64,000 bases of DNA from a bacterium (GTDB lineage: Bacteria > Electryoneota > Electryoneia > Electryoneales > Electryoneaceae). The stretch lies in NCBI GenBank assembly GCA_963669175.1, contig OY769902.1:3424001-3488000 (forward strand), read 5' to 3'. Positions 32,839 through 60,068 of this stretch are shown in pieces. Each line of letters begins with the position of its first letter. Positions within the stretch are counted from its first letter, which is position 1. The position numbers and the translations under genes were made by a program. Below the pieces are notes generated by a model. It worked only from the letters and a program-made list of their open reading frames with translations, was not told the origin of the DNA and did not search any database.

Positions 32839-33029
32839 CGGTTGCCTTATCCACTGAAGTAACAGCGATTTTACCCCTGCGGCTCATGCAGCAAGCAAGT
32901 CATGCATGCTGTTTTTACTTCATCGCTGTTTAGAATGGGTAGACCACTGGTTGACAGCATATGATTAAGCGGAAAAGCTGTCAAATCACCTCGAAGTGGT
33001 GAAACTTGAATAGCGCGGGTGTGTAAACC

Positions 33030-33424
33030 CTGTCTCTTACCCACATCCTCTGAAAGCTTTATCAGCAAAAGGATTGTGGACATCGCATTTTTAGAATCCC
33101 GGCGGGATTCCCTATTTTAGCATAGTGTATAGGCCGTCTGTTTGGCCTGTACACTATGTCAGGATTTCTAACGAACAATCAACCCTGGAAGGGTTGCATA
33201 ATGAGCAGTCAATATTAGTTTATTCAATTATTGCAGGTAATAACGTAATTTATATCCTTTATAAATCAATTGGGTATCAATTATACTTTATGCAACCCTT
33301 TCAGGGTTGATATGAGGTTTGATCTTTAGCGTAGGGTAGGCGCTAAACAGACAGCGCCTACCCTACGCTAAAATATCCCACCCCCACGGGGTGGCAGAAA
33401 CACGAAGATGTGAGCAAGAAACAG
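33030..33424. mobile_element. 395-bp MITE, copy 1 (IS4/IS50-like ends)
   Basis: TIRs CTGTCTCTTACCCACATC and GATGTGAGCAAGAAACAG. 10-bp TSD TGTGTAAACC at 33020-33029 and 33425-33434. Near-identical to 46624-47018. Confidence 0.9.
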
Positions 33425-34865
33425 TGTGTAAACCCCGGGAATACAAGGATTACCACACCAATACCAATCGTCCCCGAAGGGTACGCACATCTGATGAGTC
33501 TATCAGAACCTTCCCGCTACAGATAGGAGGAATATTGTGACTGGGATTCTCTTATCCAGCAAAACAGCGAAGCCCCCATTTTTTCTCCTCATATTCATAC
33601 AATCGGATATCTTTAAGAAAAGTATTGCTTTTCATCAGCAACCTCAGGTAGTTTTCTTTGTAGCAAGAAGAAATAGCGGTCTATTGCATCTACACGTTTC
33701 GCCTGAAACAACTGATATTAACGTATTCTGACAGGCAGATCGATGAAGCTTCCAACTCGCCTGACCCGGTTTTATCGCGTATTCCTGCCGTTACTTATTA
33801 CTCTGCTTTCTGGTGGCACTATACCACTCCCCCTCTTTGCCGAGTGGCTGCCTTCCGGAACGCAGGTAACTCCTTACAACAGCGCGATATACAGTCGCTT
33901 TGGCCTTGTGCCGGACAGTAGCGGTGGGTGTTACCTGGCGTATTTTACCAGTTACGATCCGGATGCTACAGGTGAACCTCGTTGCAAGGTACAGCATATT
34001 AACCGAAACGGCGAGGTGCTGTGGCCGGAAGAGGGCATCTTTGTCGCAGACCCCGACTCGATGTACGCGTTCTATTTTGGCGCTTGTGTTTCCGCACCGG
34101 GCGGGGGGCTCTATGTGGTGTTTGAGGGCAAACGCACCGAAGCAAGAAACAACGCAATCTGGATTCAACAGTTCTCCCCTGAAGGGGAACGTCTCTTCGG
34201 TCCCCGAGGCATTCAACTCACACTGAATGACTCCACAGAATACAATCATATGGATTCGCGATGGTGGCGCGCTACGGTTTCGGATGGAGTTGGTGGTGTT
34301 ATTGTCGGACATTATTACTCCAATGTTGTGAACGGGCAGTCTGTGCGACATATGATGGCGCACCGCGTCACCCCGGATGGTGAAGTGGCCTGGCGCAATG
34401 TCCGGGTGTCTCCTGATCTGGATGCCATGGTGGGAACCTGCCGCGCGGTTACATCGCCCTTCAGTGGTGTGGCTTTTTTTACGGAAATTCATGACAGCCT
34501 GATGGCGCGATTTGTCAATCTTAACGGGCAGGTTTTCTGGGAAAACAATCCGACGATCATTCACAGTGAAATCTATGATGAAGAACATGAGCGTTTTTAC
34601 AGTTGCCATTCTTACAATGTAGTGGCTTTTCCCAATGGCGGGTATTGTATCGGCAATGGAAGCGTGGATGAGCTTCGTTACTTCTATATTGGACCGGACG
34701 GACTGGTCTGGAATGGTCCCCACGGAACCCTCCTTCTCAGCGGACAGTTATCTGATGATCCGTCATTCGATGTACAGTGTTTTACAGGCAATGCTGATAT
34801 CGCAACAGATGGTTTTTTTGTATATATCGTATGTTTGACATTTAATCCTGAAATAACATATTTAA

Positions 34866-36326
34866 CTCGGTTTTGTTGAATTACTCAGGTCTTGCAAAAA
34901 GTAAAAGGCATGGTTCATTTTACAACCAAGAAGACGCCAAATCTCTTCAGTTGTAAAGGAGATAACCATGCCTGTCATAACATCGTCATTTTTTGAGTTA
35001 CTTGCAAGTTTTCGTCCGGTGTTTCGGAAGCCTGTTTATGAGAATTTTGTACTGTTGGCTATCGGCGCTGTATTGAATTTCGGTCGTCAGACAGTCTGTC
35101 AGTTATTACGTGTATTTCCCGGACCGGTAGCGAAGAGTTGGTCTTGTTATCACCATTTTCTTTCGTCTGCCAACTGGTCCGCCCTGAAACTGGCAAAGAT
35201 TCTCTGCTCTTTGATACTTGATCAGATTGCCGAACGTGATCCGATCCTTCTGATCGTGGATGATACCCTGATCCGTCGTTGGGGAAAGCATGTTTACCAG
35301 ATATCCGTTCACCGCGATCCCGTCCGTTCGGGCAAAGCAGGGACAAAAGTCGTTTATGCTCGCGGTCTTCAATGGATGGTGATTTCGATTGGTTTGCGCA
35401 CCCGTTATCGTTCGCAGATCTGGGCGCTTCCTGTATTCGTGTTTCCGGAGATCGCCAAAAAGCGTGTTCCGGAATCGAAGTACCGCAGTCCTGTACACCT
35501 GATCATTCTCGGGGCGCGTCTGCTGCTTCGATGGTTCCCGGACCGCCGTTTCCTTATCCTTGCCGACGGTACGTTGAACTCCCACGAACTTCACCGTTTC
35601 GTGGCGAAAGAGAACCGTCTTGCTATCATCGGGCATTCGCGTATGGATACGGTGCTGCATGATCCGCCGCCTCCACCGAACGGGAAACGTGGACGTCCGC
35701 GCAAAGTCGGTGACCGTTTGCCCGCACCGGGACAAGAGGCGAAAAAGCCGGATGCTGCCTGGGAAAAAGCGTCTTGCCTCTGGTATGGGAACAAGACAAA
35801 AGACCTGTTGCTGCTTTCCGGTGTTGGCTGCTGGTACCGTTCCGGGGAAGATGTTGTCCTGATACGCTGGGTGGTGGCGCGTGATCCCGACGGCAAAAAC
35901 AAGGACATTGTCTTATCTACATCCAAAACAGACTTAACCCCGGCCCAGGTTGTCAGCTCATATGTACGACGATGGGCGTTGGAAACCACGTTTGAAGAGT
36001 CACGGAAACATCTGCGTATCGAAACGACAGAAAACTGGTCAAAAAAATCGATTCAAAGAACAGTGCCCCTGCTGTTTGGCTTGTTCAGTCTGATGGTTGT
36101 TTGGTATAGTCAGCAGCCAGAGCAGAAAGCTGTTGCGCAAACAGAGTGGTACACAAAACTGGAACCCAGTTTCTCAGACGTGCATCAGGCATTGCGTGCT
36201 GAATTGTGGATGCAGGCGATTTTTCCCGAATGCAAGCAGCCACGCGGATTCTTAAAAAAGAAAAGCAATATCCTTAAATTCCTTATTCACAAAGCCGCTT
36301 GATCCGCTAAAATGAGCAAAACCGAG
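34866..36326 (+). mobile_element. IS701-like insertion sequence
   Basis: TIRs CTCGGTTTTG and CAAAACCGAG. Direct repeat TATTTAA at 34859-34865 and 36327-36333 (5-7 bp depending on end placement). Confidence 0.9.
34968..36302 (+). CDS. IS701-family (DDE_5-type) transposase
   Basis: YHHFLS.A.W, IVDDT, HRDPVRS, WALP, LADG, RGRPRK.G and Y.RRW.LE.TFEE motifs. Confidence 0.9.
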   Translation: MPVITSSFFELLASFRPVFRKPVYENFVLLAIGAVLNFGRQTVCQLLRVFPGPVAKSWSCYHHFLSSANWSALKLAKILCSLILDQIAERDPILLIVDDTLIRRWGKHVYQISVHRDPVRSGKAGTKVVYARGLQWMVISIGLRTRYRSQIWALPVFVFPEIAKKRVPESKYRSPVHLIILGARLLLRWFPDRRFLILADGTLNSHELHRFVAKENRLAIIGHSRMDTVLHDPPPPPNGKRGRPRKVGDRLPAPGQEAKKPDAAWEKASCLWYGNKTKDLLLLSGVGCWYRSGEDVVLIRWVVARDPDGKNKDIVLSTSKTDLTPAQVVSSYVRRWALETTFEESRKHLRIETTENWSKKSIQRTVPLLFGLFSLMVVWYSQQPEQKAVAQTEWYTKLEPSFSDVHQALRAELWMQAIFPECKQPRGFLKKKSNILKFLIHKAA

Positions 36327-37301
36327 TATTTAAATCATCTATATATATGTTCCTACGATGGTCAACCGTTATACCCGTCCCCATGGGATGTAGGTGAAGT
36401 TACTTATGCTCATGCAACACAAATGTTTGCCGAACCCTATTATCAGTTATTTACTTTCAGGGACCAGCGTGGTCAAATATTCCCATATGCGCAGATGGTA
36501 TCCCGGGCGGGAGAACTTCCCTGGGGTATTGAAGCGGATTCTTTATGTAATCCCGCTATCTATCCAGCAGACCGATTATGTACAATAAAAAGCGCTCCGG
36601 ATACATTTCTGACGGCTTGGTATTGTGCCTATCAATCTGATGGTAGCTATTTCGGCGCATTCCTGATGACACAAACGGTGGTTTCCGAAGAAGACTACCC
36701 GGTACAAGAGTCACCAAACATAGTTAACTCTCCCAGGGCTTTTTCGATTGTAAATGCCTACCCTGATCCCTTCAACTCATCGGTAACCGTACAGTATGAC
36801 ATTGATGCGCCGGGCCGGTATGAATTCACCGTGTTCAATCTCCTCGGTGAAAGCGTGTACAAAGACACAATACAGGTATCCCAATCCGGCCGGGGAAACT
36901 GGCGCTGGCAGGCGAACGAGTATGCTTCTGGTGTGTACCTGGTTCAACTTCGCAGCCTTGCAACTAAGGCAACCGTAGCAAGAAAAGTAACGCTGGTTCG
37001 ATAGAAGCGTATCCCGATGCGCTCAAGAGTATCGGATAGAATGGAAGATGGACCGGTTGTATCGATGACGTGGTGAGAGTGGAAGCAGCCTCACGTGCGA
37101 ATCGGGCCAGCCGTCATTGCAGGAAAAGTCACGCTGGTTCGATAAACTCGCGCTGCACTTGTTGAGCAAATCGGGAACTGTGTAGATACCTAATAGCTGA
37201 TGTACTGAACATCAAGATCCCAGTTCAACAGGCAGTATCAGAATGCAAATGAAAGTGTAGCCTATTCTGATTTAGTCTGTTAAACCGGTGATGATAAATT
37301 G

Positions 37302-37326
37302 AAACGCCCCACCAAAGCGGGGCGTT
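37302..37326 (-). terminator. Terminator after gdhA
   Basis: AACGCCCC...GGGGCGTT hairpin. Confidence 0.6.
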
Positions 37327-37348
37327 GAAAATTCTCTTCAGGGTAATC

Positions 37349-38698
37349 TTACGCGTACAGGCCACGAAGTTCCGCAGCGCGTGTGACACGACGGATCGCC
37401 ACGATAAAGGCGGCGGTACGAAGCGGCACATTGTACTCGAGCGATGTGTCGAGCACAACCTTGAAACCGTTGTCCATGTAACGCTTCAGGTCTTCATAAA
37501 CACGTTCCGCTGACCAGTAATAGCCCATACGGTTCTGCACCCACTCGAAATAGCTGACTGTCACGCCACCGGCATTGCAAAGGATATCCGGAATGACCAT
37601 GACGCCTTTTTCTTCCAGGATGTCATCCGCTTCCGGGGTACAGGGACCGTTGGCGGCTTCTGCGATGATCTTTGCCTTGATCTTGCCAGCGTTGTCGGCA
37701 GTGATCTGGTTTTCCAGGGCGGCCGGGATCAGGATATCCACATCCTGCTCGAACAACAACTGGGGATCATCCAACTTGCGAACGCCCAGTTCCGGCACGT
37801 TTTCCGCATTGTTCAGGGTCTTGTTCGAAACCACGTAATCGTACGCGGCCGGGACATTGATGCCTTTTTCGGATGTAGCGGCAAATGCGCCATCCACATC
37901 ACTGATGGCCATGACTATTGCGCCCATATCATCCAAGATCTTGGCGGCGTTTGCACCGGCATTGCCGAATCCCTGGATAGCGACTTTCGCACCCTTCAGC
38001 TCGATGCCAAGATGTTTCAATGCACCGATAATGGTTAATACAACACCCTGTGCAGTTGCGGTGGCGCGACCTTCGCTTCCACCCAACTCCAGCGGCTTGC
38101 CTGTCACAACAGCCGGAATCCAGTCGCCACCCTTATGCATGGAATAGGTATCTTCAAACCAGGCCATCACCTGGGGATTGGTATTAACATCCGGTGCGGG
38201 AACATCGCGGTCCGGTCCGAAAATCTCAACCAGTTCCGCGAAATAACGACGGCTCAAGCGTTCCAGTTCACCAAGCGACATTTCACGCGGATCACAAATG
38301 ACGCCACCTTTACCGCCACCCATCGGAATACCAACCGTCGCGCACTTGAAAGTCATCCAGAAAGCGAGCGCTTTGACCTCGTCCAAATCGACATTGTGGT
38401 GGAAGCGAACGCCACCTTTTGCCGGACCACGAGCGATGCTGTGCTGGACACGATAGCCTTTGAAGATCCCGATCTTACCGTCATCCATGCGAACGGGAAG
38501 TTTGACTTCGATGATGCGGCGCGGCTCCTTGATCATAGCGATCTGATCACTGTCCAGCTTCAGGATTTCTGCTGCACGGTCAAACTGTTTTAAAGCATTA
38601 TCGAAAGCGCTGGCATGATTTGTCTGCACCATGCCCTTGAGATGTCGTTCGTAGGCTTGATCGCGAAGCTCACCAGCGATGCCCCTGTTCTTGGTCAT
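37349..38698 (-). CDS. gdhA: Glu/Leu/Phe/Val dehydrogenase (glutamate dehydrogenase)
   Basis: GPAKGGVRF, MTFKC, GGGKGG, DVPAPD, QGFGNAG, EAANGP and NAGGVTVSYFEWVQN motifs. SD AAGGAG. Confidence 0.93.
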   Translation of the reverse strand: MTKNRGIAGELRDQAYERHLKGMVQTNHASAFDNALKQFDRAAEILKLDSDQIAMIKEPRRIIEVKLPVRMDDGKIGIFKGYRVQHSIARGPAKGGVRFHHNVDLDEVKALAFWMTFKCATVGIPMGGGKGGVICDPREMSLGELERLSRRYFAELVEIFGPDRDVPAPDVNTNPQVMAWFEDTYSMHKGGDWIPAVVTGKPLELGGSEGRATATAQGVVLTIIGALKHLGIELKGAKVAIQGFGNAGANAAKILDDMGAIVMAISDVDGAFAATSEKGINVPAAYDYVVSNKTLNNAENVPELGVRKLDDPQLLFEQDVDILIPAALENQITADNAGKIKAKIIAEAANGPCTPEADDILEEKGVMVIPDILCNAGGVTVSYFEWVQNRMGYYWSAERVYEDLKRYMDNGFKVVLDTSLEYNVPLRTAAFIVAIRRVTRAAELRGLYA

Positions 38699-38991
38699 GA
38701 TCTTCTCCTTAACTCCACGTAAAAATAAAGCTACCGGCTCAGGCAGCTTTTCAATGCAAACACCGACAAACAAATGAAACGTATCCCGGCATAGCTTACC
38801 TACCGGAGATTATACCGCGAATATGCCCGATTCAACGAGGCTATGCGAAGTAAGCTTGTGATGAGAGCCCAAGAGCCTTACCCAAGAAAAACCGCGAAGA
38901 ATCATGGCTCGCATTGCACAATTTGACATCCGGTCGCTATACTACTTTGTTATAGATCGGAGCTGATTTCTTTACCATAGCGGAGGCCTAC

Positions 38992-41442
38992 ATGAAGAAG
39001 AAGTTCGTCCTGTTGTTGGCTGTATCCTTGTTATGTTTCGTTGCAGGAAATAGTATTGCTTACGAAGATCTGGTTGCTCCGGTAAAATGCATCGAAACAG
39101 GCGCTCGGAGTGTCGGGGGGGCGCTTCCTGTAAACGAGTTGGATGAAGACTCTACCCTCTTTGAAGACAATTTCGAAGGGGAAAATCTCTGGGAAGCCTA
39201 CGACTACACTACCACTCCAGCAAAGTGGCACATTGATGATTGGAATGCGTACGGCCAGTTAAACTCCTGGTGGTGCGGCGAAGAACGTGTCGTTAATGGC
39301 GAGACCATTTACGGATACAACAACGCCTGGTTGCAATACTTGGAAACGCCGTCGCTGGACTTGAGCAATGCTGATGAATCCACACTGGAACTCGATTTTG
39401 AGATGCAGTACGGTTCTGAAGATGGCGTCCCGCAGAATGAAGATTATGACGGCTGGGATGGCGGCACAGTCTTCTATTCCATGGATGGCGGCACAACCTG
39501 GGAAGTCCTTCCGAATCCCTCCGTTGAGTACAACGCAACATCCCTTTACTCTTTCGGTGGCACTCATGATTTGGGCCCCGGGATCGCAGGCTGGCGCGGC
39601 GAATCCGACGGATGGGAAAACTGCACCTATGATCTTGGCGACTTGGCCGGAGAATCGGATGTACGCTTCCGTTTTGCCTTTGCATCGGACGCAGGTGTCA
39701 ATACGGAAGGCCACCCGGAATGGTTCGGCTTCCAGATTGATGAGATTTCTGTTGTTGATGACAACAACGATTATCTCACCAATGATGCAGATGGCACAGC
39801 AACCCCGGAAGAGTTCACGCCGCTGGATCAGGTTGGCGCGGATGTCAACTTTGAACTTCAGGAAGATGAATACGCCAGCCCGACTCATGCCTGGTGGTGT
39901 GGACCTGGCCATGATCTGTTCTCAGTACTGATCTCACCGGAAGTTGAACTGATTGAAGGCTGGCGGCATTTCATCCAGTTCCAGCTTTATTGCGATCTTC
40001 CCGACAGTGATGGCGACGAGGACAATTCACTGGAAGACTACTACCAGTTGGAAATATCGGATGACGGTGGCAGTCACTGGGAACGTCTCGCCTACGATTA
40101 CGGCTACAACGGTTCGGATGAAGGTTGGGTGCTTCGTGACAGCATGCTGAATAACGAAGCTGCAAGCGTACCAATTGAAATCCCGATTGCTTATGCGGGT
40201 TCTTCCGTGCGTTTCCGGTTCCGCATTATCACGGATGATAACGATGATGGCGGTGTTGGTACAGGTCTCTACATCGATGACTTCACGGTCATCGCCAACT
40301 CCGGTTTTGATCATGATGTGGGTGTTGAACAGGTACGTATTCCGTTCCCTGTCACCCAGGGTGAACTGGTTCCCTGCTGGGCGGAAATCCGTAATTACGG
40401 GAACAATGAAGAGACCTTCAACGCCATGTGGCGTTTGGGTACTCAACCCTATCCCCTGTTGAGCGGACAGACATTGGCTTCACGTGACAGCATAGTGGTG
40501 TGGATGAGCGCTGATGGCGAAGAAGAAGGTTGGACCCCAACCCAGCCTGGTGAATTCACCATTACCGTCCAGACACTATTGGGTGATGATTACGCGGACA
40601 ACAACAACTCTGAAGAATACCCGGTGACAGTGCAACCAGTCGGCACCTATGAGTATGGTTTTGACGACCGTCTCCCCACTCGCACCACCTCTGCATTCCA
40701 GACTGGTGAAGGCCCGGCGACACATTTCAATACGTTTGATTATGATCGCGGTCCTTTCCACAGTTCATTATTCATTGCTGAAGAAGTACATGTTCTCTGG
40801 AATGGTGATCTGGACGAGGGCGAAACTGTGGACGTGCGTCTGCATATCCTGGACGACAGCGGCGATGATGCCCCTGGCGCTGAAATATTCTCTGAGGATT
40901 ATACCGTTGAATCCGGTATCATTAATCCAGAGTGGCATGTAATTGACCTTAGTGGCGAAGACGTGGTCATTTCCGGCAAAGCCTGGGTATGGTTTGAATT
41001 GCTGGAAGAAGGCGATGATCCGAAACCGCATATCGTCTTCTCGCCGGGTGATGTATACCCTGACAACCACTTTGGGTACGATGGCACCGATTTAAGCGCG
41101 CCTTCCGGTGATTGGATGATTCGTATGGTAGGCACCTATGAGTACGGTGTCGATGATGACATCCAATCATCCTTGCCGGGTAGCTTCGCACTTCATGCCG
41201 CTTATCCGAACCCATTCAATCCGACTACACGCCTTGGCTTTGATTTGCCTCAGGCCGCTTCAGTACGGTTGGCCGTGTTCGATGTGCTGGGACGTGAGGT
41301 AGCGTCGTTACTGAGTGGTTCCATGCAGGCCGGACGTCACAATGTGACCTTCGATGGCAGCGGTCTTGCTTCCGGCTTGTACTTCGCACGCCTTGAAGCT
41401 GACGGACACGTATTTACCGAAAAGATCATGTTGGTGAAGTAA
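38992..41442 (+). CDS. Secreted acidic protein with tandem InhA/MAM-like beta-sandwich domains, CARDB-like domain and T9SS/FlgD-like C-terminal domain
   Basis: Signal peptide, repeated S.DGG..W...RFRF..D....G..ID units, YPNPFNP...ASGLYFARL...KIMLVK. Confidence 0.8.
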   Translation: MKKKFVLLLAVSLLCFVAGNSIAYEDLVAPVKCIETGARSVGGALPVNELDEDSTLFEDNFEGENLWEAYDYTTTPAKWHIDDWNAYGQLNSWWCGEERVVNGETIYGYNNAWLQYLETPSLDLSNADESTLELDFEMQYGSEDGVPQNEDYDGWDGGTVFYSMDGGTTWEVLPNPSVEYNATSLYSFGGTHDLGPGIAGWRGESDGWENCTYDLGDLAGESDVRFRFAFASDAGVNTEGHPEWFGFQIDEISVVDDNNDYLTNDADGTATPEEFTPLDQVGADVNFELQEDEYASPTHAWWCGPGHDLFSVLISPEVELIEGWRHFIQFQLYCDLPDSDGDEDNSLEDYYQLEISDDGGSHWERLAYDYGYNGSDEGWVLRDSMLNNEAASVPIEIPIAYAGSSVRFRFRIITDDNDDGGVGTGLYIDDFTVIANSGFDHDVGVEQVRIPFPVTQGELVPCWAEIRNYGNNEETFNAMWRLGTQPYPLLSGQTLASRDSIVVWMSADGEEEGWTPTQPGEFTITVQTLLGDDYADNNNSEEYPVTVQPVGTYEYGFDDRLPTRTTSAFQTGEGPATHFNTFDYDRGPFHSSLFIAEEVHVLWNGDLDEGETVDVRLHILDDSGDDAPGAEIFSEDYTVESGIINPEWHVIDLSGEDVVISGKAWVWFELLEEGDDPKPHIVFSPGDVYPDNHFGYDGTDLSAPSGDWMIRMVGTYEYGVDDDIQSSLPGSFALHAAYPNPFNPTTRLGFDLPQAASVRLAVFDVLGREVASLLSGSMQAGRHNVTFDGSGLASGLYFARLEADGHVFTEKIMLVK

Positions 41443-41463
41443 AGAGAAAGACTTCGAAAATCC

Positions 41464-41495
41464 CGGGACAGGCCTGAACTGGTCTGTCCCTTTTT
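41464..41495 (+). terminator. Intrinsic terminator
   Basis: GGGACAGGCC...GGTCTGTCCC plus T-tract. Confidence 0.7.
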
Positions 41496-41627
41496 CGTTT
41501 CAGGATATGGCAGTTCTCGAAAGAAATATCGCATGTTTATGAAGTCAGATTGAGATAGTCAACGGTTTGATCTCAAACTCACACTTCACTGATGCGACAT
41601 TGTTTCCAATACATGCCCATACATTTG

Positions 41628-41666
41628 AAAAGCGCCGGTGTGGGAAACACCGGCGCTTGTTTTTTC
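41628..41666. terminator. Bidirectional terminator
   Basis: AAGCGCCGGTG...CACCGGCGCTT with A and T tracts. Confidence 0.7.
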
Positions 41667-41728
41667 TGCCTGTTGCTGCTGGAAGGAGTGGTTGGCGCCT
41701 GCGCTGAGCAACAGGACTGGGGAACAGA

Positions 41729-44302
41729 TTACAACGTCACTTTGACCTCAGCCATGTAAAACCGTGTCGCTGCTGGAATGATGTACACGCCCCACGCATC
41801 CGTAGCGCCGGTAAGCTCATACTCGGTGCCGAACAGGTTGCGCACATGCAGATCCAATTCAACTTTCGGCCAGTAAGCACGGCTGAAGAATGCGTCCCTG
41901 CCGGAAACGCCTAGAAGATTGACCCCCATTGAAAAATCAAACCGTGTATATGCGTCAATACGCCTGTCCTGGGACAGTGTTGGCGAACCGGCAATAGAAA
42001 CACCGTTCACTACTGTTTGTCCCTGCAAATCGGACAGATTTTCGGTATTGTCGAGATACTGCTCGCCCACATGGTGTGCGCTGATCCGTGCCCAACCACG
42101 TGTGGTTTTCCAACTCAAACCGATATTGGCAATCAGTTCCGGAGCTTTGATGATGTGATTGTCACTGTTATCAATCGGAACCTCAACACTCCAGCCGCTT
42201 GCCGGATCAACGACAGACGTAGTCGTTGTGTAGTCTACAAAGCGGTTCCTTGCCAGATTTACGTTACCTTCCACCTGCAAGTGCATGGGCAACAGAATCT
42301 TTCCACCCAGTTCAATACCTATCCGGCGCGTTTTAGCGGCATTTTCAATAACAGGCTGGCCCAGGACGTCATATTCGCCGATGTCAACAATCTCATCGGT
42401 CATTTCCATCCAATAGCCTGATATCATCACAGCAGCCTGGTCCGTACGCCAGTCTACACCAGCTTCGACGTCGTTCAACACCTCTGGTTTAATCTGCGGA
42501 TCTTCGAAGTTCACCGGGTCGTCATAGCGAATAACCGGGTAGCCGGTTTCTCCCCAATAATGATCTTTCAACCGTGGCTCCCTGCTGACCAGGCTGTAGC
42601 TGCCCCATACGCGGACAGGATCATTCACCTTGTAAGAGATGCCGAAATGCGGGTTGGAGAACAGGTAGGACTGCGAGAATTCCGTCCCGAAGCGTTTGTT
42701 ATGCAGCACCTCGTATTCAATACTGGAAAGCTGCAATGTCCCCGAAAGCAGCAGCTTTTCCGTGACCTGGAATTGATCACTCAGGTAGCCGGTATAGATA
42801 TGTTTGCGTCCTTCATAGTCATACCAGACATGTTCCGGTTCTGTGTCACTCGGAAGAGCTTCTGCCCATTTGAGTTCACCATAACGACGGCTGCGGTGGC
42901 TGACAATCTGCCCACCGAGTGACAGGTCATGCTTCTCCAACTTCCAGTTCAGACGTGGTTGCCATCCGCCCTGGTGATTGACTGCATGCTGACGTGCAAC
43001 GGCATTGGTGAAATCAACGAAGAACTCACCATCCACATTCTCCGCCAAAGCGCCGGTATCGTCATAACGGTACCAGTGCGACGGATACATGGTGCTGTCG
43101 GATGTAGTCAATCCGGGAAGATCCCAGAAATCCCAGGAATAACCCCAGTAGTCAGGGTAGTACACATCGAAATAGCCTTCACCACGGATGTAGTAGGCTG
43201 TCTGACTCAGCTCCAGGTTGTCCCGGATTTTCCACGAATGATGAAGCTGGTAATGAGGCTGGTAATAATTGTCCGTCTCGTTCTCGTAGGTCAGCGGGTT
43301 GGCTGTTCTGTCCTGTTCCAGAACATCACGAGTAATACCGGAATACGCCATGTGGTTCTTGATCGGGCCACCGAACGCCAACAGACGTGTTACCGTCTTC
43401 TCGCCGATATGAGTACCTGACAGATAATAACTGAAGTAATCCGACCAGGACTGATCACGATATCCATCCGAAGTCAACCGGGAAAATCGTGCGTCAATAT
43501 AGGTATTCCCTTTGATCGGACCGGACTGGAGGTGCACACTGCCACGCTTGGTATTGTAGCTGCCGAAACCATATTCGGCGGATACTTCAGGCTCATCCGA
43601 GTACGTTGCAGTCTGCACACTAATGGTCCCTCCTACAGACGGAAGACCATAGGGCACAACACCGCTGCCACGTTGCACCTGGACATCTTCGATATTCGCA
43701 CCGAAATCCGCCAGGTCAACCCAGTAGACATAAAAGTCTTCCGGATCATTCAGCATCACGCCATTGATGAACACACCGATACGTTTGAAATCGATGCCAC
43801 GCATGGAAACATAGCTGTAACCAAGCGCATTCCCGGCATCTGTGGTGGTGGTCAACGATGGGGAGCCTTCCAACGCAACCGGAAGATCCTGACCGAAGTA
43901 ACGAGTATCCAGCTCGTCCTTGGTGACGTTGGTGAAGGGAACAGTGGATTTTTCGGCTTCAACGCGGTCATACGTGACAATCACACCTTCAGACTTGTAC
44001 ACGGCCGGTTCGAGCTCAATCGCTACTGACAGCTCGGCATCACCAGTCGCTGAAAAATGTACACGAGTCGGCCTGAAGGCGACATGCGATACCAGGAGGA
44101 CATGATCGCCTTCCGGTACCTGTTTCAACATAAAGGAGCCATCATCAAGCGTAATGGTTCCCAACCCGGTACCCTCGATACTGACATTGACCTCGGCCAA
44201 TGGTTGCTCAGTATCCGCGTGGGTAACCGTACCTGACAACTCTGCGGCCCCTGTTATCAAAGGCACACAAAGGAACAACAACACGAATGCGGCGATTCGC
44301 AT
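41729..44302 (-). CDS. TonB-dependent receptor, probably for thiamine or a precursor
   Basis: Carboxypeptidase-regulatory-like N-domain, plug (SMRG...NGV.LND.ED...VQVQRG..GG.I) and beta-barrel. TPP riboswitch upstream. Confidence 0.88.
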   Translation of the reverse strand: MRIAAFVLLFLCVPLITGAAELSGTVTHADTEQPLAEVNVSIEGTGLGTITLDDGSFMLKQVPEGDHVLLVSHVAFRPTRVHFSATGDAELSVAIELEPAVYKSEGVIVTYDRVEAEKSTVPFTNVTKDELDTRYFGQDLPVALEGSPSLTTTTDAGNALGYSYVSMRGIDFKRIGVFINGVMLNDPEDFYVYWVDLADFGANIEDVQVQRGSGVVPYGLPSVGGTISVQTATYSDEPEVSAEYGFGSYNTKRGSVHLQSGPIKGNTYIDARFSRLTSDGYRDQSWSDYFSYYLSGTHIGEKTVTRLLAFGGPIKNHMAYSGITRDVLEQDRTANPLTYENETDNYYQPHYQLHHSWKIRDNLELSQTAYYIRGEGYFDVYYPDYWGYSWDFWDLPGLTTSDSTMYPSHWYRYDDTGALAENVDGEFFVDFTNAVARQHAVNHQGGWQPRLNWKLEKHDLSLGGQIVSHRSRRYGELKWAEALPSDTEPEHVWYDYEGRKHIYTGYLSDQFQVTEKLLLSGTLQLSSIEYEVLHNKRFGTEFSQSYLFSNPHFGISYKVNDPVRVWGSYSLVSREPRLKDHYWGETGYPVIRYDDPVNFEDPQIKPEVLNDVEAGVDWRTDQAAVMISGYWMEMTDEIVDIGEYDVLGQPVIENAAKTRRIGIELGGKILLPMHLQVEGNVNLARNRFVDYTTTTSVVDPASGWSVEVPIDNSDNHIIKAPELIANIGLSWKTTRGWARISAHHVGEQYLDNTENLSDLQGQTVVNGVSIAGSPTLSQDRRIDAYTRFDFSMGVNLLGVSGRDAFFSRAYWPKVELDLHVRNLFGTEYELTGATDAWGVYIIPAATRFYMAEVKVTL

Positions 44303-44386
44303 GGCACACCTCTTGTTAAAAATGGAGTAACCTTGCATGTTCGCCGGGGACACCAGAACAAGTTGGAACGAAGAAGGGATCGGCCG

Positions 44387-44419
44387 AAACAGAAAAACGC
44401 TCACCGATACGATGAGCGC
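44387..44419 (-). terminator. Leader terminator (riboswitch expression platform)
   Basis: Reverse complement GCGCTCATCG-tat-CGGTGAGCGTTTTTCTGTTT. Confidence 0.7.
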
Positions 44420-44463
44420 AGGAATAGTCGACCGTTGTGGAGACGCTGCAAATGCGTGACCAC

Positions 44464-44552
44464 GCCGCCTTCCCTACGCCGGAATTAACCGGATCAGGTT
44501 CCACGGGTCTGATCTCAGGTCCGCTGTCATCTCGGACCACCCCGGAACGGCT
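44464..44552 (-). promoter_or_regulatory. TPP (THI-box) riboswitch
   Basis: Reverse complement GGGGTG...CTGAGA...ACCCGTGGAACCTGATCCGGTTAATTCCGGCGTAGGGAA. Confidence 0.95.
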
Positions 44553-44601
44553 GGACGCAATGTAATATGTAGACTCACAAAACGCAAATGGAGCTAAGTC
44601 A

Positions 44602-45900
44602 CTACTGCGCCGGACTTTCCATATGTTTGACTCCATTTCGGAGCGGACGCATCCCCCCGGCAAAACCGAGAATGTCTTCTCCATACCGGTCACGCACCCG
44701 ATCCAGAGCCGTAAACATCACTTCCCGCCGTTGACGCACAGTTGCCAGGAACAGGTCATCCTGAACACCGCGTTGTTCACTGGGACACATCAGGTGTGAC
44801 ACACTGATCCCGATCAGACGCACACTCTTGTCCCCTTCGCGCCATAATTCACGCAGCAGGCTCTTTGCTGTCTCATAGATGTCAATGGGATCATTTGTAA
44901 AGGTCTTCATCGCTCGCTGGTGAGTTCTCGTGTGAAAATCGAACGTTCTGAGCTTCAGGGTCACCAGGTTTCCCACATACTGCTCTCGGCGCATCCGCCT
45001 GGCTGCCTTGTCGCACAGATGGAGCAGGCAACTTTGCAGGACCGACTCCTTGATCACATTTTCCATGAATGTGTTTTCGTGGCCCATAGATTTGTCATCG
45101 GGACGCTCTTCCAACGCGACAACCTTGTCCCCGCCTTTGCCGCGCATGGTCCGGTGAAGTTGCTCGCCTGCCATCCCCAGTACCGCACGGAGCTTGTAGA
45201 CCGGGCATCGGATCAAATCCTCAATCGTGTGAATATCCAAAGTCAGCAGCGCCTGCTCAGTTGCCTTGCCCACACCCGGTATTTTCCTGACAGACAACGG
45301 CCCAAGTACTTTCAAGGTCTCTTGAGCATCTATGACCAGTAGCCCATCCGGCTTATCCAGGCCCGATGCGATCTTGGCTACAGTGCGTGACGGTCCGATA
45401 CCAACAGAAGCGACAAGGTTCAGCTTCTCCATAATTGTGCGTTTAATCGCCGCGCCGTATTCCCGGGCTCCTCCCCACAACCAGGCACAGCCGCTCGCAT
45501 CTAAAAACGCCTCATCCACACTGTACGGTTCCACCTTCGGGCTGAATTGACGCAGGATGGCCATCATTCGAATGGAAGCGTCCATATACTTCCGTCCGGT
45601 TGTCTTCAAAAAGATGCCGTCCGGACACAGCTTTCCCGCTTCATACAGCGACATCCCGGAATGAACACCATAGCCCCGCGCCACATAATTACAGGTTGTA
45701 ACAACTCCCCTCGTTCCCTTCGGACCGCCAATAATCACCGGATGCCCTTTCAAGGCGGGGTTGTCACGTTCTTCAATCGCCGCAAAGAAAGCGTCCATAT
45801 CCACATGCAGGATCAGCGAAGACTCTTCCGAAGTCCGGTCCTGTGTCTTTCTGCGGTCTGCATCCGCCCGCATCCGTGTGCTGACATGTGGATTCAACAT
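44602..45900 (-). CDS. dinB: DNA polymerase IV (Y family)
   Basis: ILHVDMDAFFAAIE, NY.AR.YGV.SGM, SVDEAFLD, AKIAS..KPDG and VRLIGI motifs. Confidence 0.93.
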   Translation of the reverse strand: MLNPHVSTRMRADADRRKTQDRTSEESSLILHVDMDAFFAAIEERDNPALKGHPVIIGGPKGTRGVVTTCNYVARGYGVHSGMSLYEAGKLCPDGIFLKTTGRKYMDASIRMMAILRQFSPKVEPYSVDEAFLDASGCAWLWGGAREYGAAIKRTIMEKLNLVASVGIGPSRTVAKIASGLDKPDGLLVIDAQETLKVLGPLSVRKIPGVGKATEQALLTLDIHTIEDLIRCPVYKLRAVLGMAGEQLHRTMRGKGGDKVVALEERPDDKSMGHENTFMENVIKESVLQSCLLHLCDKAARRMRREQYVGNLVTLKLRTFDFHTRTHQRAMKTFTNDPIDIYETAKSLLRELWREGDKSVRLIGISVSHLMCPSEQRGVQDDLFLATVRQRREVMFTALDRVRDRYGEDILGFAGGMRPLRNGVKHMESPAQ

Positions 45901-45915
45901 GGCGCAATCCTTTCA

Positions 45916-46170
45916 TCATCCCACAAGACAGACCCGTGACAGCATCCAGACGCGCGATGCCGTGTTCATGGTCATCTCGTATACATCAGGCCCGGAGGTC
46001 ATCACGGAGAAATGGTGAAAACGTGTCTGTCCCTCTTCAGATAACCACTCCCCATTGACACGTTCCACACGATATACCCGTTCTTTCCAGCGAAACTTCA
46101 ACGGCTGTATCTTTCCGCTACGGAACAGCGTGATGACCTCGATCGGGTCGCCGATTTCTTCGTACCTCAC
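45916..46170 (-). CDS. Small DUF6504/ImuB-C-like protein
   Basis: P..FRW....Y.V..V...W......HF.V....YE....W.L pattern. GTG start after SD CAGGAG, 15 nt before dinB. Confidence 0.65.
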   Translation of the reverse strand: MRYEEIGDPIEVITLFRSGKIQPLKFRWKERVYRVERVNGEWLSEEGQTRFHHFSVMTSGPDVYEMTMNTASRVWMLSRVCLVG

Positions 46171-46197
46171 CTGCTCACACTCCTGCGGCTTGCACAA

Positions 46198-46217
46198 TAC
46201 TGATAATTTGTTCAGTA
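46198..46217. promoter_or_regulatory. LexA/SOS-box-like operator
   Basis: TACTG-ATAATTTGTT-CAGTA (CTG-N10-CAG) just downstream of a minus-strand TTGACA...TACTTT promoter. Confidence 0.55.
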
Positions 46218-46623
46218 AAAAGTACAGCAAACTGTGATCAATTGTCAAGAGAGGACAGGGATTTTCAGCAGGAGAACGGGATACGTATCGTTTGAATTAT
46301 CAGGATGTTGGTGGATTGAAGTTGGAAAGTTGGCAAGTTATTTTCTTGGTTCTTCCAGCTTTAAACATGCTGTAGCGACATCATTGGCCCCGCCGGCTTG
46401 AAGTCGCCGTAGCTTGCGAAGGTGGCTGCCCGGCGGTGGTCTATTATAATTGAATAGAGAACTCGTCCTTCTGTTTTCATTCCCGCAGCGTATGCAGTAT
46501 TACAATAAAAATCAGCTACACTTTCATCCCAATGCATTATCTATGAAAATCGATAGATCACCGGAAAGCACGCTCAAGCGCGCTCACAAATTGGGTCGCA
46601 CTCCTGTCACCCCGGCTGAAGCC

Positions 46624-47018
46624 CTGTCTCTTACCCACATCCTCTGAAAGCTTTATCAGCAAAAGGATTGTGGACATCGCATTTTTAGAATCCCGGCGGG
46701 ATTCCCTATTTTAGCATAGTGTACAGGCCGTCTGTTTGGCCTGTACACTATGTCAGGATTTCTAACGAACAATCAACCCTGGAAGGGTTGCATAATGAGC
46801 AGTCAATATTAGTTTATTCAATTATTACAGGTAATAACGTAATTTATATCCTTTATAAATCAATTGGGTATCAATTATACTTTATGCAACCCTTTCAGGG
46901 TTGATATGAGGTTTGATCTTTTTCGTAGGGTAGGCGCTAAACAGACAGCGCCTACCCTACGCTAAAATATCCCACCCCCACGGGGTGGCAGAAACACGAA
47001 GATGTGAGTAAGAGACAG
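46624..47018. mobile_element. 395-bp MITE, copy 2
   Basis: TIRs CTGTCTCTTACCCACATC and GATGTGAGTAAGAGACAG. 10-bp TSD GGCTGAAGCC at 46614-46623 and 47019-47028. Confidence 0.9.
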
Positions 47019-47169
47019 GGCTGAAGCCGGGTGCTAAGAAGAGCAGGCTAAAGCCTGCTAAATCTAGAATTTTGCTTTCAAAATTGAGTTTGAAAGTTAA
47101 TCCTTGCAAGCCTTTCATCCTGGCCATCATTCTGAATCATGTATATCTTGTAAATCCAGCCAATTGAGC

Positions 47170-57716: not shown

Positions 57717-60068
57717 ATGAAAAAGGGTATCGCACTGCTTGCCCTGATTATGCTACTGACAAGCATTAGCTACGCAACTTTTCCGGAAGGTTATCACAAC
57801 CCGGATCAGGTCGAAGAATTCATCTTTGCGTTGCAGGATTCCGCGAACGTGCTAGGTGTTGGAAACCGTATGGCAATCGATACCATTGGTTATTCCCAAC
57901 AGAACCAGTGGCCGATTTACGCGATTAAAGTATCCGACGACGCTACGATTGAACGGGATTGTACAGTCGTTGTTATGTTTGGCCCTTTACATGCAGAAGA
58001 AGTCAGCGGGGTTGAGCTGGTTCTCAGCATGCTGGAAGAAACTGTCCTGGGACAACGCTCCGCGGTTCGCTATCGCAGGGAAAGCCTGGATATGTATTTC
58101 ATTCCGTCCATGAACCCGGAAGGAATGGGAATCGTATATGGCACTCACCCCTACTGTAATGATGGTATCGGAACCGATGGGCCGGATGTCAGCTTCCGTA
58201 AAAACTGCCGTCTGAACCCGGACGATGGCTATTTCCGTTATGATAACGATCATTACTGGGGATACGATTCCTCGGGCATAGACCTGAACCGGAATTTCGA
58301 CATCAACTGGTTCCACGGTGACACGTTATATCACTTCCTGGCAACCCAACGTGAGCGTTTTGACTACCTGGCAGGATCAACGCCTTTCAGTGAAGCCGAA
58401 ATGCAATATGTCAGGGATTTTATCCAGGAAAAGAAACCGTACATGAGCGCTACATTTCACACTTCTCGTACAGGTAACTTTTCTCTGAAGGTTATGTACC
58501 CCTGGGACTGGGGCCTTGATCACGACAAGCAGGCGCCGGATTCTCTCCTCTTCAAAGATGTAGCGCTTCGTTTTGCTGAATTATGCAGTGGCAACTCTAT
58601 TCCACCCTTTGCGCCCGCTCCTTCCGGTGGACGTAATGGAAAGATGCACGACTGGATGTACGCGGAAGGTGGCTGGCTCAACATGCAGACTGAATTGCGA
58701 TCCATTCAACCACCACGCGACTCACTGGATAATTGGATTGAAGAATACAAACAAGGCACCTATTACCTGATGGATCGTGCCTATGGTAGCTATGATATCC
58801 AGGGTTCTACCGGTCAACTGAAGCTGCTTGTCGTCGATGAGCAAGGAAATCCACTGGAAGCTGAGGTCATCGTTCCCACTCGTCAATGCGGCTATTTCAA
58901 ACCACGCATGACTCGGCCGGAAACAGGCACCTATCGTCGTCCCTTCCTGCAGGGCAATTATGAAGTCGTGGTCAGTGCCTTCGGGTATGTGTCCGACACA
59001 ACCACCTACGCCGTCCCGGAACAGGGAATCGCCGGGTACACGGTCACACTTGAACGTATGCCTCATCACCTGGTGCACCTCGGCCTGTTTGACGGCAACG
59101 ACCCCGACAACATGTCACACCTGTCCGGAACGATGGTCGTCCACCATGACTGGGGCATTGACACGCTAGAAGTCAACGACGGCTACATGCTGCGTCGCTG
59201 GCCAGCTGGTGATTATACGATTGAAGCCTGGGCGGATGGTTACATCCCCTATCGTGAAACTGTTACCGTATCCGATACAACCGTATTCCGCGCCAACCTG
59301 GTTTCAGCCAACGATATCTGGCGGGATGGTTTCGAAGATCACACCCTTCCCGACCGCTGGACCTACGATGGTGATTTCGTCTGGGCGCATGCCGGGTACG
59401 ATAAAAAGGAAGGTGTCGCATCGCTCAAGAGTGGTGGCCCCAGCCTGATGCTTTCAAACGATGTTGCCGGGACACTGTATCTCGACATCGACATGCCGGA
59501 GACGGATGAATCTGTCGCCTTGACCGGCTGGCGTTGTTTTGAACTTGAACCGGATTACGATTTCTGCACGGTGGAAATCAGTGTCGATGGCGATGACTGG
59601 GAAGAACTGGAAGTCCTGAATGGATTCTCACGCTGGCAACCGTTCTTCTACGACCTGCGGCCCTACCTGGATGCGAACAGTGTCGAGATCCGCTGGACCT
59701 TGGCGATGGATCATTCCAACGATGACCGTGGCCTCTTCCTCGATGAAGTCGCCCTGGTGTCAAACGCGGTATTCGAAGCGCCGGAGATTGACGCAAAGCT
59801 TCCCGGAACCTTTGCACTGGAAAACGCCTATCCGAACCCGTTCAATCCAACCACCATGCTGACCTATTCTGTCGCGGCGAATGCGCCAGTCACACTGAAG
59901 GTCTATGATGTGCTGGGGCGTGAAGTGATGACTGCGTTTGACGGCATCCGTAACGCCGGACAGTACCGTCTGGAACTGGACATGAGCAGCTTCGCCACCG
60001 GTATCTACTTCGTCCGCATGGATGCGCCGAGTTTCCAGCAGGCACAAAAACTGGTACTGGTCAAGTAA
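57717..60068 (+). CDS. Secreted M14 zinc carboxypeptidase with T9SS/FlgD-like C-terminal domain (paralog 1)
   Basis: HAEE, NPEG, RKN, GIDLNRNF, TFH, YPW and TEL motifs; ends YPNPFNP...KLVLVK. Confidence 0.85.
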   Translation: MKKGIALLALIMLLTSISYATFPEGYHNPDQVEEFIFALQDSANVLGVGNRMAIDTIGYSQQNQWPIYAIKVSDDATIERDCTVVVMFGPLHAEEVSGVELVLSMLEETVLGQRSAVRYRRESLDMYFIPSMNPEGMGIVYGTHPYCNDGIGTDGPDVSFRKNCRLNPDDGYFRYDNDHYWGYDSSGIDLNRNFDINWFHGDTLYHFLATQRERFDYLAGSTPFSEAEMQYVRDFIQEKKPYMSATFHTSRTGNFSLKVMYPWDWGLDHDKQAPDSLLFKDVALRFAELCSGNSIPPFAPAPSGGRNGKMHDWMYAEGGWLNMQTELRSIQPPRDSLDNWIEEYKQGTYYLMDRAYGSYDIQGSTGQLKLLVVDEQGNPLEAEVIVPTRQCGYFKPRMTRPETGTYRRPFLQGNYEVVVSAFGYVSDTTTYAVPEQGIAGYTVTLERMPHHLVHLGLFDGNDPDNMSHLSGTMVVHHDWGIDTLEVNDGYMLRRWPAGDYTIEAWADGYIPYRETVTVSDTTVFRANLVSANDIWRDGFEDHTLPDRWTYDGDFVWAHAGYDKKEGVASLKSGGPSLMLSNDVAGTLYLDIDMPETDESVALTGWRCFELEPDYDFCTVEISVDGDDWEELEVLNGFSRWQPFFYDLRPYLDANSVEIRWTLAMDHSNDDRGLFLDEVALVSNAVFEAPEIDAKLPGTFALENAYPNPFNPTTMLTYSVAANAPVTLKVYDVLGREVMTAFDGIRNAGQYRLELDMSSFATGIYFVRMDAPSFQQAQKLVLVK

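Follow-up and report, generated by a model that had tools for sequence, protein, structure and literature searches.

A Tn5/IS50-type miniature element of an Electryoneaceae bacterium that probably lands in REP hairpin tips and carries a REPIN-like cassette

Elements of the IS50 subgroup are listed with the end consensus CW------Y---CA-A--W- and direct repeats of 8-9 bp (De Palmenaer et al. 2008, Table 1, PMC2266710). Repetitive extragenic palindromic (REP) sequences were described as targets of insertion sequences (ISs) by Tobes and Pareja (2006, PMC1525189). Their examples include the IS4-family element ISRm22 of Sinorhizobium meliloti, whose 6-bp repeats lie at the palindrome axis and are imperfect in some cases, which was ascribed to recombination. 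REP doublets forming hairpins (REPINs) and REP-associated tyrosine transposases (RAYTs) make up a further system (Bertels and Rainey 2011, PMC3116915; Nunvar et al. 2010, PMC2817692; Ton-Hoang et al. 2012, PMC3333891), and GTAG-tagged REPs have been linked to tyrosine transposases (Di Nocera et al. 2013, PMC3733652). Here, we describe a 395-bp miniature transposable element with inverted repeats (MITE) and compare it with these systems. Two copies lie in a stretch of 64,000 nt (the window), which covers positions 3,424,001-3,488,000 of the forward strand of contig OY769902.1 (GCA_963669175.1; Electryoneota, Electryoneaceae). The genome of this marine bacterium (G000) is a single 5,447,365-bp contig (C1) with 50.1% G+C. 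An original prediction, made from the window, had proposed a DDE-mobilised MITE that both carries and targets REP-type DNA, and this is supported in substance. The element is probably a gene-less MITE of the Tn5/IS50 type, which is mobilised in trans, lands in REP tips and carries a REPIN-like cassette.

BLAST of the whole chromosome returned 42 full-length copies of 395-398 bp, and a perfect 10-bp target duplication flanks 34 of them. This copy number and these duplications are far beyond chance. The remaining eight comprise five copies with a flipped loop, two near-matches, and one decayed duplication. Two subfamilies can be distinguished. The larger (n = 29) has a mean pairwise divergence of 0.53% and spread recently, and the smaller (n = 13; 2.05%) holds both window copies. 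The divergence between the two is 10.1%, mainly in the central A+T-rich spacer. Copy 847595-848464 is interrupted by a 470-bp element and copy 4494613-4496329 by a 1312-bp IS. A truncated copy (1392844-1393018), a divergent copy that retains the right end only (about 517742-518137), and a solo right end (2154928-2154945) were also found. As predicted, the window holds two 395-bp copies with about six differences; the exact number is 6 (columns 131, 234, 329, 330, 416, and 421 of alignment A1), and each copy has its own 10-bp duplication, TGTGTAAACC or GGCTGAAGCC (Table 1). The boundary of copy 1 is ambiguous within 12 bp, with one further base common to each side. No transposase gene lies inside, again as predicted, and the longest open reading frame wholly within copy 1 encodes 61 amino acids (aa). 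The MITE was not found in the 40 relatives searched, which is weak evidence of absence because these assemblies are fragmented. Its interior has no match in 77 external loci (L051-L127) except for 54 nt in G001, a metagenome-assembled genome (MAG) of the same genus. Rfam gave only sub-threshold miRNA-hairpin matches to the element.

By subfamily consensus, the 18-nt left end is CTGTCTCTTACCCACATC and the 18-nt right end CTGTCTCTTGCTCACATC or CTGTCTCTTACTCACATC. Both window copies have the same left end, and the right end of copy 2, read inward, is CTGTCTCTTACTCACATC. The inverted-repeat formula of the original prediction is exact for copy 2; copy 1 has 2 additional mismatches. Three of the four MITE end types agree with the IS50-subgroup consensus in Table 1 of De Palmenaer et al. 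(PMC2266710) at 7/7 conserved positions. The left end of the subfamily found in the window agrees at 6/7, position 19 being C.

The chromosome encodes no matching transposase, and the family is now orphaned and presumably immobile at present. Neither PF14706 nor NF033590 nor protein P0003 (a Tn5-like protein from an IS with matching ends) found a match there. A second element type with such ends is also lacking in the chromosome (paired ends, at most 4 mismatches), and the four resident DDE_Tnp_1-positive IS types examined have different ends. Genome collections were scanned with an 18-nt pattern of 16 fixed and 2 degenerate bases, which gave at least 76 loci; since we estimate about 280 chance matches for this pattern, only loci with paired ends were used. 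A 1557-bp IS in a Chloroflexia MAG (L114) has exactly the 18-nt left end of the MITE, a right end with 2 differences, and a 9-bp duplication. Its 482-aa protein combines Tnp_DNA_bind, DDE_Tnp_1, and Dimer_Tnp_Tn5, scores 316 bits on NF033590, and matches the Tn5 transposase in the PDB at E 3e-41. A second Chloroflexia IS (1539 bp) has exact ends and a frameshifted gene. Ktedonobacter sp. SOSP1-85 carries these ends on a 137-bp MITE and also has two ISs (1437 and 1486 bp) that have related ends, intact Tn5-like genes, and duplications of 9 or 10 bp. Further MITEs occur in haloarchaeal MAGs (259-293 bp), a Calditrichaeota MAG (365-366 bp), and an uncultured bacterium (232 bp).

Related enzymes also occur close to the host. 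Among 79 species genomes of the same phylum (G000 included), four have NF033590 matches (E up to 1e-10), three of them in the same bacterial family. In G003, a member of this family, an NF033590-positive IS (387 bits) has a left end adjoining cacCCGGCTTCAGCC / agcaagctttagcttgctcctcttcgcacCCGGCTTCAGCC, which is the same two-hairpin REP unit, struck at the same position, as in G000. G009, from the same family, has two 1476-bp IS copies with 10-bp duplications (GGTTCCATCC) in CCCGG..CCGGG hairpins. In G015, also of this family, an end identical to the MITE right end at 21/21 nt lies beside transposase fragments. Cognate elements of the IS4/IS50 type are therefore present in G003, G009, and G015 but absent from this chromosome. 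In other genomes, ISs whose ends match or nearly match encode a Tn5-type transposase, and such an enzyme may act on the MITE ends. The element shares the end consensus and a palindromic target with IS50/Tn5 as presented in PMC2266710, and like-ended elements encode three-domain Tn5 transposases. Unlike IS50/Tn5, the 395-bp MITE has no transposase gene and a 10-bp instead of an 8-9-bp duplication; it strongly prefers CC/GG-flanked hairpin tips, and its interior appears to be a foreign hairpin cassette.

The consensus of the reconstructed targets is cc-GGCTWWAGCC-gg (position counts ccccc-GGCTTAAGCC-ggggg), in which G, G, C, T and A, G, C, C form the strongest columns. This sequence sits above all at the tips of REP main hairpins, and two REPIN-like families therefore absorb two thirds of the insertions. 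The REPIN-1 unit measures ~210 bp, and each of its two inverted arms consists of TTAGC, a small hairpin A, CTCTTCTTAGC, and a main hairpin B (CCGGCTNNAGCCGG); hairpin A occurs in two stem-swapped forms. The second REP family (class 2) has a small hairpin CCACCTCGAAGAGGTGG, GAATAGC, and a hairpin GCGG-TGCGTAAGCG-CCGGG, and its units form inverted pairs ~160 bp apart. Sites were classified by hand from flank, fold, and REPIN listings, which placed 19 of the 42 copies in REPIN-1 hairpin B, 3 in REPIN-1 hairpin A (including copy 3926219), 6 in class-2 hairpins, and 14 elsewhere. Copy 1373592 is not at a class-2 site, and the truncated copy also lies in a class-2 repeat. Within REPs, the insertion is always at a hairpin tip. 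Of the 14 sites outside them, four or five fall in further strong hairpin tips, and about eight are non-hairpins. Both window insertions lie in REP hairpins, as had been proposed: copy 1 is at the tip of a class-2 main hairpin, whose right half continues at 33435-33439, and copy 2 is at the tip of a REPIN-1 hairpin B. The REP-like hairpins named by the original prediction were all located, CACCTCGAAGTGGTG and CAGGCTAAAGCCTG at the positions in Table 1 and GTCCCCGAAGGGTAC near 33474.

A hairpin of at least 5 bp is centred on the duplication at 32/42 sites compared to 312/2000 random sites. The median folding energy at the sites is -7.4 kcal/mol, and the mean at random sites is -2.2. The tips of REPIN-1 make up 2.5e-5 of genome positions but take 22/42 insertions. 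Both B hairpins are unoccupied in 24 two-armed REPIN-1 units (with 128-133 bp between them), and unoccupied hairpins amount to 73 of type B and 42 of type A, or 96 A-type hairpins if both stem variants are counted. All four combinations of orientation and arm type were used (7, 5, 3, and 2 copies); the script did not assign the remaining 2 of the 19 hairpin-B copies. Copy 1 (3457030) and copy 1983091 of the same subfamily lie in paralogous repeats, at the same position but in opposite orientation. In other organisms, 17 of 21 listed insertions have ccc starting 13-15 nt before the element, mirrored by ggg after it, and the duplications are of 9 or 10 bp. The 1312-bp IS mentioned above (L035:1307-2618 = 4494776-4496087) is a second hairpin-tip lander; it encodes a 413-aa DDE_Tnp_1 protein, has the ends CAGAACTGTCCGG, and sits in the tip of a small hairpin of the MITE (CAACCCTGGAAGGGTTG) with a 9-bp duplication (CCTGGAAGG).

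In the five copies with a flipped loop (271929, 1183775, 2144036, 1750582, and 3926219), the 4-nt loop is reverse-complemented in one copy of the duplication. Both flanks still come from one REP unit, and in 3/5 they extend the inverted repeat perfectly or near-perfectly. Inversion between MITE copies was considered as a cause of these mismatched duplications and was ruled out, because the flanks come from a single REP unit in 5/5 cases and only the loop is flipped. Our guess is template switching within a long quasi-palindrome. ISRm22 (PMC1525189) likewise is a DDE element at the REP symmetry axis, and some of its copies have non-identical direct repeats. It is also autonomous, has 6-bp repeats, and every copy is in REPs; the MITE, by contrast, is non-autonomous, has 10-bp repeats, lies in REPs in 28/42 cases, and carries REP-type DNA itself. 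With 14 copies elsewhere, the family falls outside the type 1 association as that paper presents it. The statement of the original prediction that two normally separate systems are linked here was too strong, since REP-targeting DDE ISs, including ISRm22, were already described in 2006.

An independent marine metagenome run (X1) contains a contig that looks like the unoccupied orthologous site of copy 1. It joins window positions 33018 and 33424 and skips 405 bp, i.e., the element and one duplication; 12 letters fit either side, and the unique right flank follows with 14 other letters in 330. The contig has only 25 letters to the left of the joint. In the two runs that cover the stretch best, contigs stop at the left end of the element, as expected for a repeat. 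This comparison used contigs, setting aside uncovered stretches and the differing joints at 33030-33463, which come from paralogous repeats. In the proposed check for empty sites in relatives, no contiguous empty site was found in G001, G003, G009, or G015, where the flanking genes (64-79% identity) are on separate small contigs.

The repeats are associated with Y1 transposase genes. The chromosome has 10 Y1_Tnp (PF01797) matches, and by our own reading the genes 2672106, 5013755, 1503039, and 5361186 have open frames with HUH and tyrosine motifs. REPIN-1 arms lie on both sides of genes 1503039-1503494 and 5361186-5361680, which are mutually 60% identical, and MITE copy 1502572-1502967 sits in an arm of the former. 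No class-2 unit lies within 2.5 kb of a Y1 match in this chromosome; Y1 genes in G003, G005, G013, and G014 are flanked by class-2-like arms (small hairpin, (GA)ATAGC, hairpin). Protein P0002, from the 1503039/5361186 pair, scores 21 bits on the RAYT model NF047646, which has an 80-bit cut-off, and P0001, from gene 2672106, does not match it. Both proteins pass the IS200 model NF033573, and their closest solved structures are the TnpA proteins of ISDra2 and IS608 (IS200/IS605). For this reason, the repeats are termed REPIN-like here, and the genes are termed Y1 instead of RAYT. A RAYT in the strict sense, as in the original prediction, was not shown, since these Y1 proteins do not reach the RAYT model. 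Minisatellites with units of ~19-21 bp in tens of copies adjoin hairpin modules beside a Y1 gene (L183:790-1360 = 2671395-2671965) and solitary modules (3743400-3743510 and 4460260-4460330), and REPIN-1 copies also adjoin short tandem repeats of the CGAATCAGCAA type.

The interior of the MITE is a two-armed array of hairpins. It begins with a small hairpin, CCTATTTTAGC, a hairpin with a 15-bp stem, and a CAACCC..GGGTTG small hairpin. An A+T-rich spacer and an inverted trio follow, giving the order hp1, TTAGC, hp2, hp3, spacer, hp3', hp2', hp1'. In copy 1, the long hairpin (hp2) has the loop GTCTGTTT in the left arm and AAACAGAC on the + strand in the right arm. The stem sequences of the right-hand trio differ from those of the left-hand trio. 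The fold z-score of the element is -13, and positions 84-172 match 259-346 in inverted orientation at 66-74% identity. The arms are 74.8-81.4% identical (BLAST) to two modules upstream of Y1 gene 2672106. The same hairpin order is present around the Y1 genes in loci L184 and L190; it is found on both sides of Y1 gene 5013755 (L190) and likewise flanks the ortholog of that gene (50% identity) in G001, a genome without the MITE. The prediction of a REPIN-like cargo is supported by this order and by the identity to the arms, and the cargo looks like a gene-less Y1 element within a Tn5-type shell. Cargo and target hairpins belong to different REP families.

When at least 13 of 15 pairs around the loop motif were required, 155 hairpins of the hp2 type were counted in the genome, compared to 1 in a control displaced by 200 nt. 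The 395-bp family contains 91 of them and a 470-bp MITE family 41; the other 23 are elsewhere. In an alignment of 23 diverse members (A2), 12/15 stem pairs changed on both sides, a count that retains the misaligned and probably false member g147155. Members were selected without regard to the 5' tag region, and this region is conserved. The stem has an unpaired A/C in 13/23 members (columns 32 and 53), which resembles a conserved mismatch. BLAST of the chromosome found no full two-armed interior without Tn5-type ends. In common with REPIN-RAYT systems as outlined in PMC3116915, PMC2817692, and PMC3333891, targets and cargo are two-armed inverted hairpin units, and the arms flank diverged Y1 HUH transposase genes that are each present once. 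Set against those outlines, the Y1 proteins here score as IS200/IS605 TnpA, the tag is TTAGC or ATAGC, and most cargo-type hairpins are copied inside DDE MITEs and are not free-standing. The GTAG-tagged REPs, as characterised in PMC3733652, are also palindromic, have a short unpaired end tag, often form inverted dimers, and in some cases flank tyrosine transposase genes. In comparison with that superfamily of 24 published families, the tag here is (T/A/G)TAGC.

The 470-bp MITE is a second shell for such hairpins. It has 46 near-full-length copies, the ends CCCGAATATTTCA, and a 4-bp duplication (CTAG, TTAG, CTAA, and others; YTAR-like). The flanks of Y1 gene 5013755 (L190) both match the right half of this MITE at 86-87% identity, and the right terminus of the MITE lies there at CTAA inside the Y1 arm. 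The element that interrupts the 395-bp copy 847595-848464 is a nested 470-bp copy (847912-848380). We tentatively suggest, as a possibility that falls somewhat short of even, that in this lineage Y1 hairpin cassettes multiply mainly as cargo of two unrelated DDE shells and not by their own transposase, in a two-way parasitic network of HUH and DDE elements. The shells would be the Tn5-type MITE (42 copies) and the IS5-like MITE with its YTAR duplication, which together hold 132/155 long hairpins. Hairpin tips of other REPINs are in turn the landing sites of the Tn5-type shell, and one such site is in an arm of a Y1 gene itself. Such a network may be general, because Tn5-type MITEs with hairpin-tip targeting occur in other phyla.

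Three observations had been named beforehand as speaking against the original prediction, i.e., other copies at random non-palindromic sites, copies without duplications, and the absence of a cognate IS4-family element from this and related genomes. None of the three was made. The following mechanism is proposed. A Tn5-like DDE transposase supplied in trans would bind the ~19-bp ends and excise the element. Pasting would involve cuts staggered by 10 bp and symmetric about the short palindrome, which in this genome is mostly the main-hairpin tip of a TTAGC-tagged REP unit. The target would be chosen mainly by a dimeric transpososome that reads symmetric duplex sequence and not an extruded hairpin. 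The interior would be a two-armed cassette built like an IS200-type Y1 element minus its gene and not left-over IS sequence, so that REP-type DNA would be copied about as cargo of a DDE shell.

Several points weigh against this account. The 10-bp duplication is atypical, as 8-9 bp are listed for the IS50 subgroup in PMC2266710. No autonomous element with both ends identical to those of the MITE was found in any collection searched, and the plasmid collection gave no match to the element. The absence of the enzyme rests on one contig, the chromosome, and plasmids of the organism were outside its scope. The relatives are fragmented MAGs of 80-96% completeness, and G015 has transposase fragments only. 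A metagenome scan with the 21-nt end gave 1 locus, without a transposase or a partner end. Between the MITE and the ISs of relatives there is no significant similarity past ~21 nt (z at most 1.8), and identification of a parent IS through subterminal similarity was rejected on these grounds. By our reading of the fold listing, 8/42 sites are non-hairpins. Among sites with the core GGCTNNAGCC, 21/136 with REP flanks and 1/65 with other flanks are occupied (Fisher p = 0.003), a REP preference that is confounded by selection, since many other-flank sites may lie in genes and insertions there be lost. The percent paired of hp2 (92%) is circular, because members were selected for pairing. To these can be added the failure of P0001 and P0002 on the RAYT model and the pair of copies 4233277/4482758, which indicates that some spread may be passive copying with the host repeat.

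Target choice could instead be structure-specific, with the transposase recognising an extruded hairpin or cruciform, i.e., any CCC..GGG stem-loop tip. We regard this as unlikely. Across phyla the inner stem bases vary yet stay palindromic (GGCT/AGCC, GACT/AGTC, GCCT/AGGC, CCCT/AGGG), the ccc ahead of 17 of the 21 insertions listed from other organisms fits a stem-loop tip, the two G009 copies are in hairpins that differ by a compensated stem change, and the sole occupied core site with non-standard flanks in this genome keeps its pairing through a compensated change (CT..AG). The eight sites without a centred hairpin, on the other hand, keep a T-A-W-A core and a G-rich right flank, and symmetric sequence preferences are mentioned for Tn5-type enzymes in PMC1525189. 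REP hairpins are the main source of palindromes here, so recognition of sequence and of structure are confounded. Another proposal is that a Y1 transposase (RAYT or IS200-type) moves the 395-bp unit as a REPIN, whose Tn5-like ends are an incidental part of the palindrome. The interior built like Y1 element arms, the 10 Y1_Tnp matches with intact motifs in the four genes examined, and the lack of a Tn5-like transposase in the chromosome would all agree with it. The copies, however, stop exactly at the inverted repeats, and 34/42 have 10-bp direct duplications; Y1 single-strand transposition (IS200/IS605) is not known to make such target duplications. Transposase-bearing ISs in relatives are bounded by the same ends, and no full-length two-armed interior was found without ends. 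This proposal is close to refuted by the duplications.

Mobilisation by a Tn5-type enzyme might still leave part of the copy number to passive copying, if a REPIN-1 that bears a MITE is duplicated as a unit by a Y1 transposase or by REPIN recombination. Copies 4233277-4233672 and 4482758-4483153 share a rare end mutation (CTGTCTCTTTCC...), the duplication, and the orientation; their REPIN-1 flanks are 95.7% identical, compared to a median REPIN identity of just 72% over all pairs, and diverge outside the REPIN at unrelated loci. Copies 2747524 and 4207394 are a similar pair. The use of all four combinations of arm type and orientation argues for many independent events, 20/42 copies are outside REPIN-1, and unoccupied REPIN-1 units of the same arm type exist, so repeated independent insertion is plausible. 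A contribution of this kind is quite unlikely in our view. It is more unlikely still that the cassette is a native stuffer of the MITE and that the matches beside Y1 genes are remnants of MITE insertions. The location of 132/155 hp2-type hairpins inside the two MITE families would fit this, as would Y1 gene 2672106, which has both matching modules upstream and none downstream. Y1 gene 5013755, however, has both arms, G001 has arms on both sides of the Y1 ortholog without any MITE copy, and distant Y1 genes in G003, G005, G013, and G014 share the grammar with shorter hairpins.

The features of the window are collected in Table 1. Both MITE copies are intergenic; copy 1 is downstream of a creatininase-family gene, and copy 2 has an Omp85/POTRA gene on one side and a DUF6504/IMS-polymerase gene pair on the other. 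Other repeats were also seen in the window. A 1463-bp IS between the MITE copies (34866-36328; ends CTCGGTTTTG; 7 genome copies) encodes a 444-aa DDE_5 (IS701-type) transposase and is unrelated to the MITE. A 1523-bp IS at 309-1831 (2 genome copies) encodes a 460-aa DDE_Tnp_1 protein and has ends unlike those of the MITE. Stretches of 255 and 300 nt at 57783-58778 and 60333-61325 recur 2547-2550 bp on at 75% identity, suggestive of a tandem gene duplication with later divergence. At 9686-10008, a 47-nt direct repeat occurs six times with spacings that are multiples of 15 and resembles a coding pentapeptide-type repeat.

Table 1. Features of the two MITE copies and of their targets (window positions)
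Feature	Position	Strand	Remarks
MITE copy 1, 395 bp	33030..33424	+	13-copy subfamily
Left target duplication, copy 1, TGTGTAAACC	33020..33029	.	tip of class-2 REP main hairpin
Right target duplication, copy 1, TGTGTAAACC	33425..33434	.	
Left terminal inverted repeat, copy 1, CTGTCTCTTACCCACATC	33030..33047	+	IS50-subgroup type
Right terminal inverted repeat, copy 1	33407..33424	-	inward reading CTGTTTCTTGCTCACATC
Left cargo arm	33094..33196	+	small hairpin 33094-33110, TTAGC tag, long hairpin 33121-33158 (15-bp stem), small hairpin 33180-33196
Right cargo arm, inverted	33293..33394	-	small hairpin 33293-33309, long hairpin 33330-33367, small hairpin 33378-33394
Class-2 REP unit struck by copy 1	32987..33019	+	small hairpin CACCTCGAAGTGGTG 32987-33001; GAATAGC tag 33008-33014; main-hairpin left half 33015-33019
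MITE copy 2, 395 bp	46624..47018	+	13-copy subfamily, like copy 1
Left target duplication, copy 2, GGCTGAAGCC	46614..46623	.	tip of main hairpin B, REPIN-1 arm
Right target duplication, copy 2, GGCTGAAGCC	47019..47028		exactly 10 bp
Outer REPIN-1 arm part at copy 2	47019..47057	+	duplication 47019-47028, hairpin B remainder, GCTAAGAAGAG linker, hairpin A
Small hairpin A, CAGGCTAAAGCCTG	47044..47057		

IS50-type MITEs and REP-targeting ISs are kinds that are already known; the design of the cargo and its recurrence in a second MITE family are worth following. A word search of a 2024 review of prokaryotic MITEs found neither "REPIN" nor "IS4", and IS50 only in the legend of a Tn5 figure. No IS50-type MITE with REP cargo was found in the full-text literature outside subscription journals and the IS50 supplement of the 2008 paper, and within the same scope there was no report of hairpin-tip targeting by the IS50 group, a point on which that supplement may bear. 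If REPs and REPINs spread at all, the usual view is that they do so by their own tyrosine transposases, and ISs are known only to land in them. If the account given here is true, transport inside a DDE shell would be a second route for the multiplication of REP-type DNA and would account for how REP clusters become nested mosaics. It would also define a Tn5 relative with a long, symmetric, and easily engineered target, namely cc-N10-gg hairpin tips cut with a 10-bp stagger.

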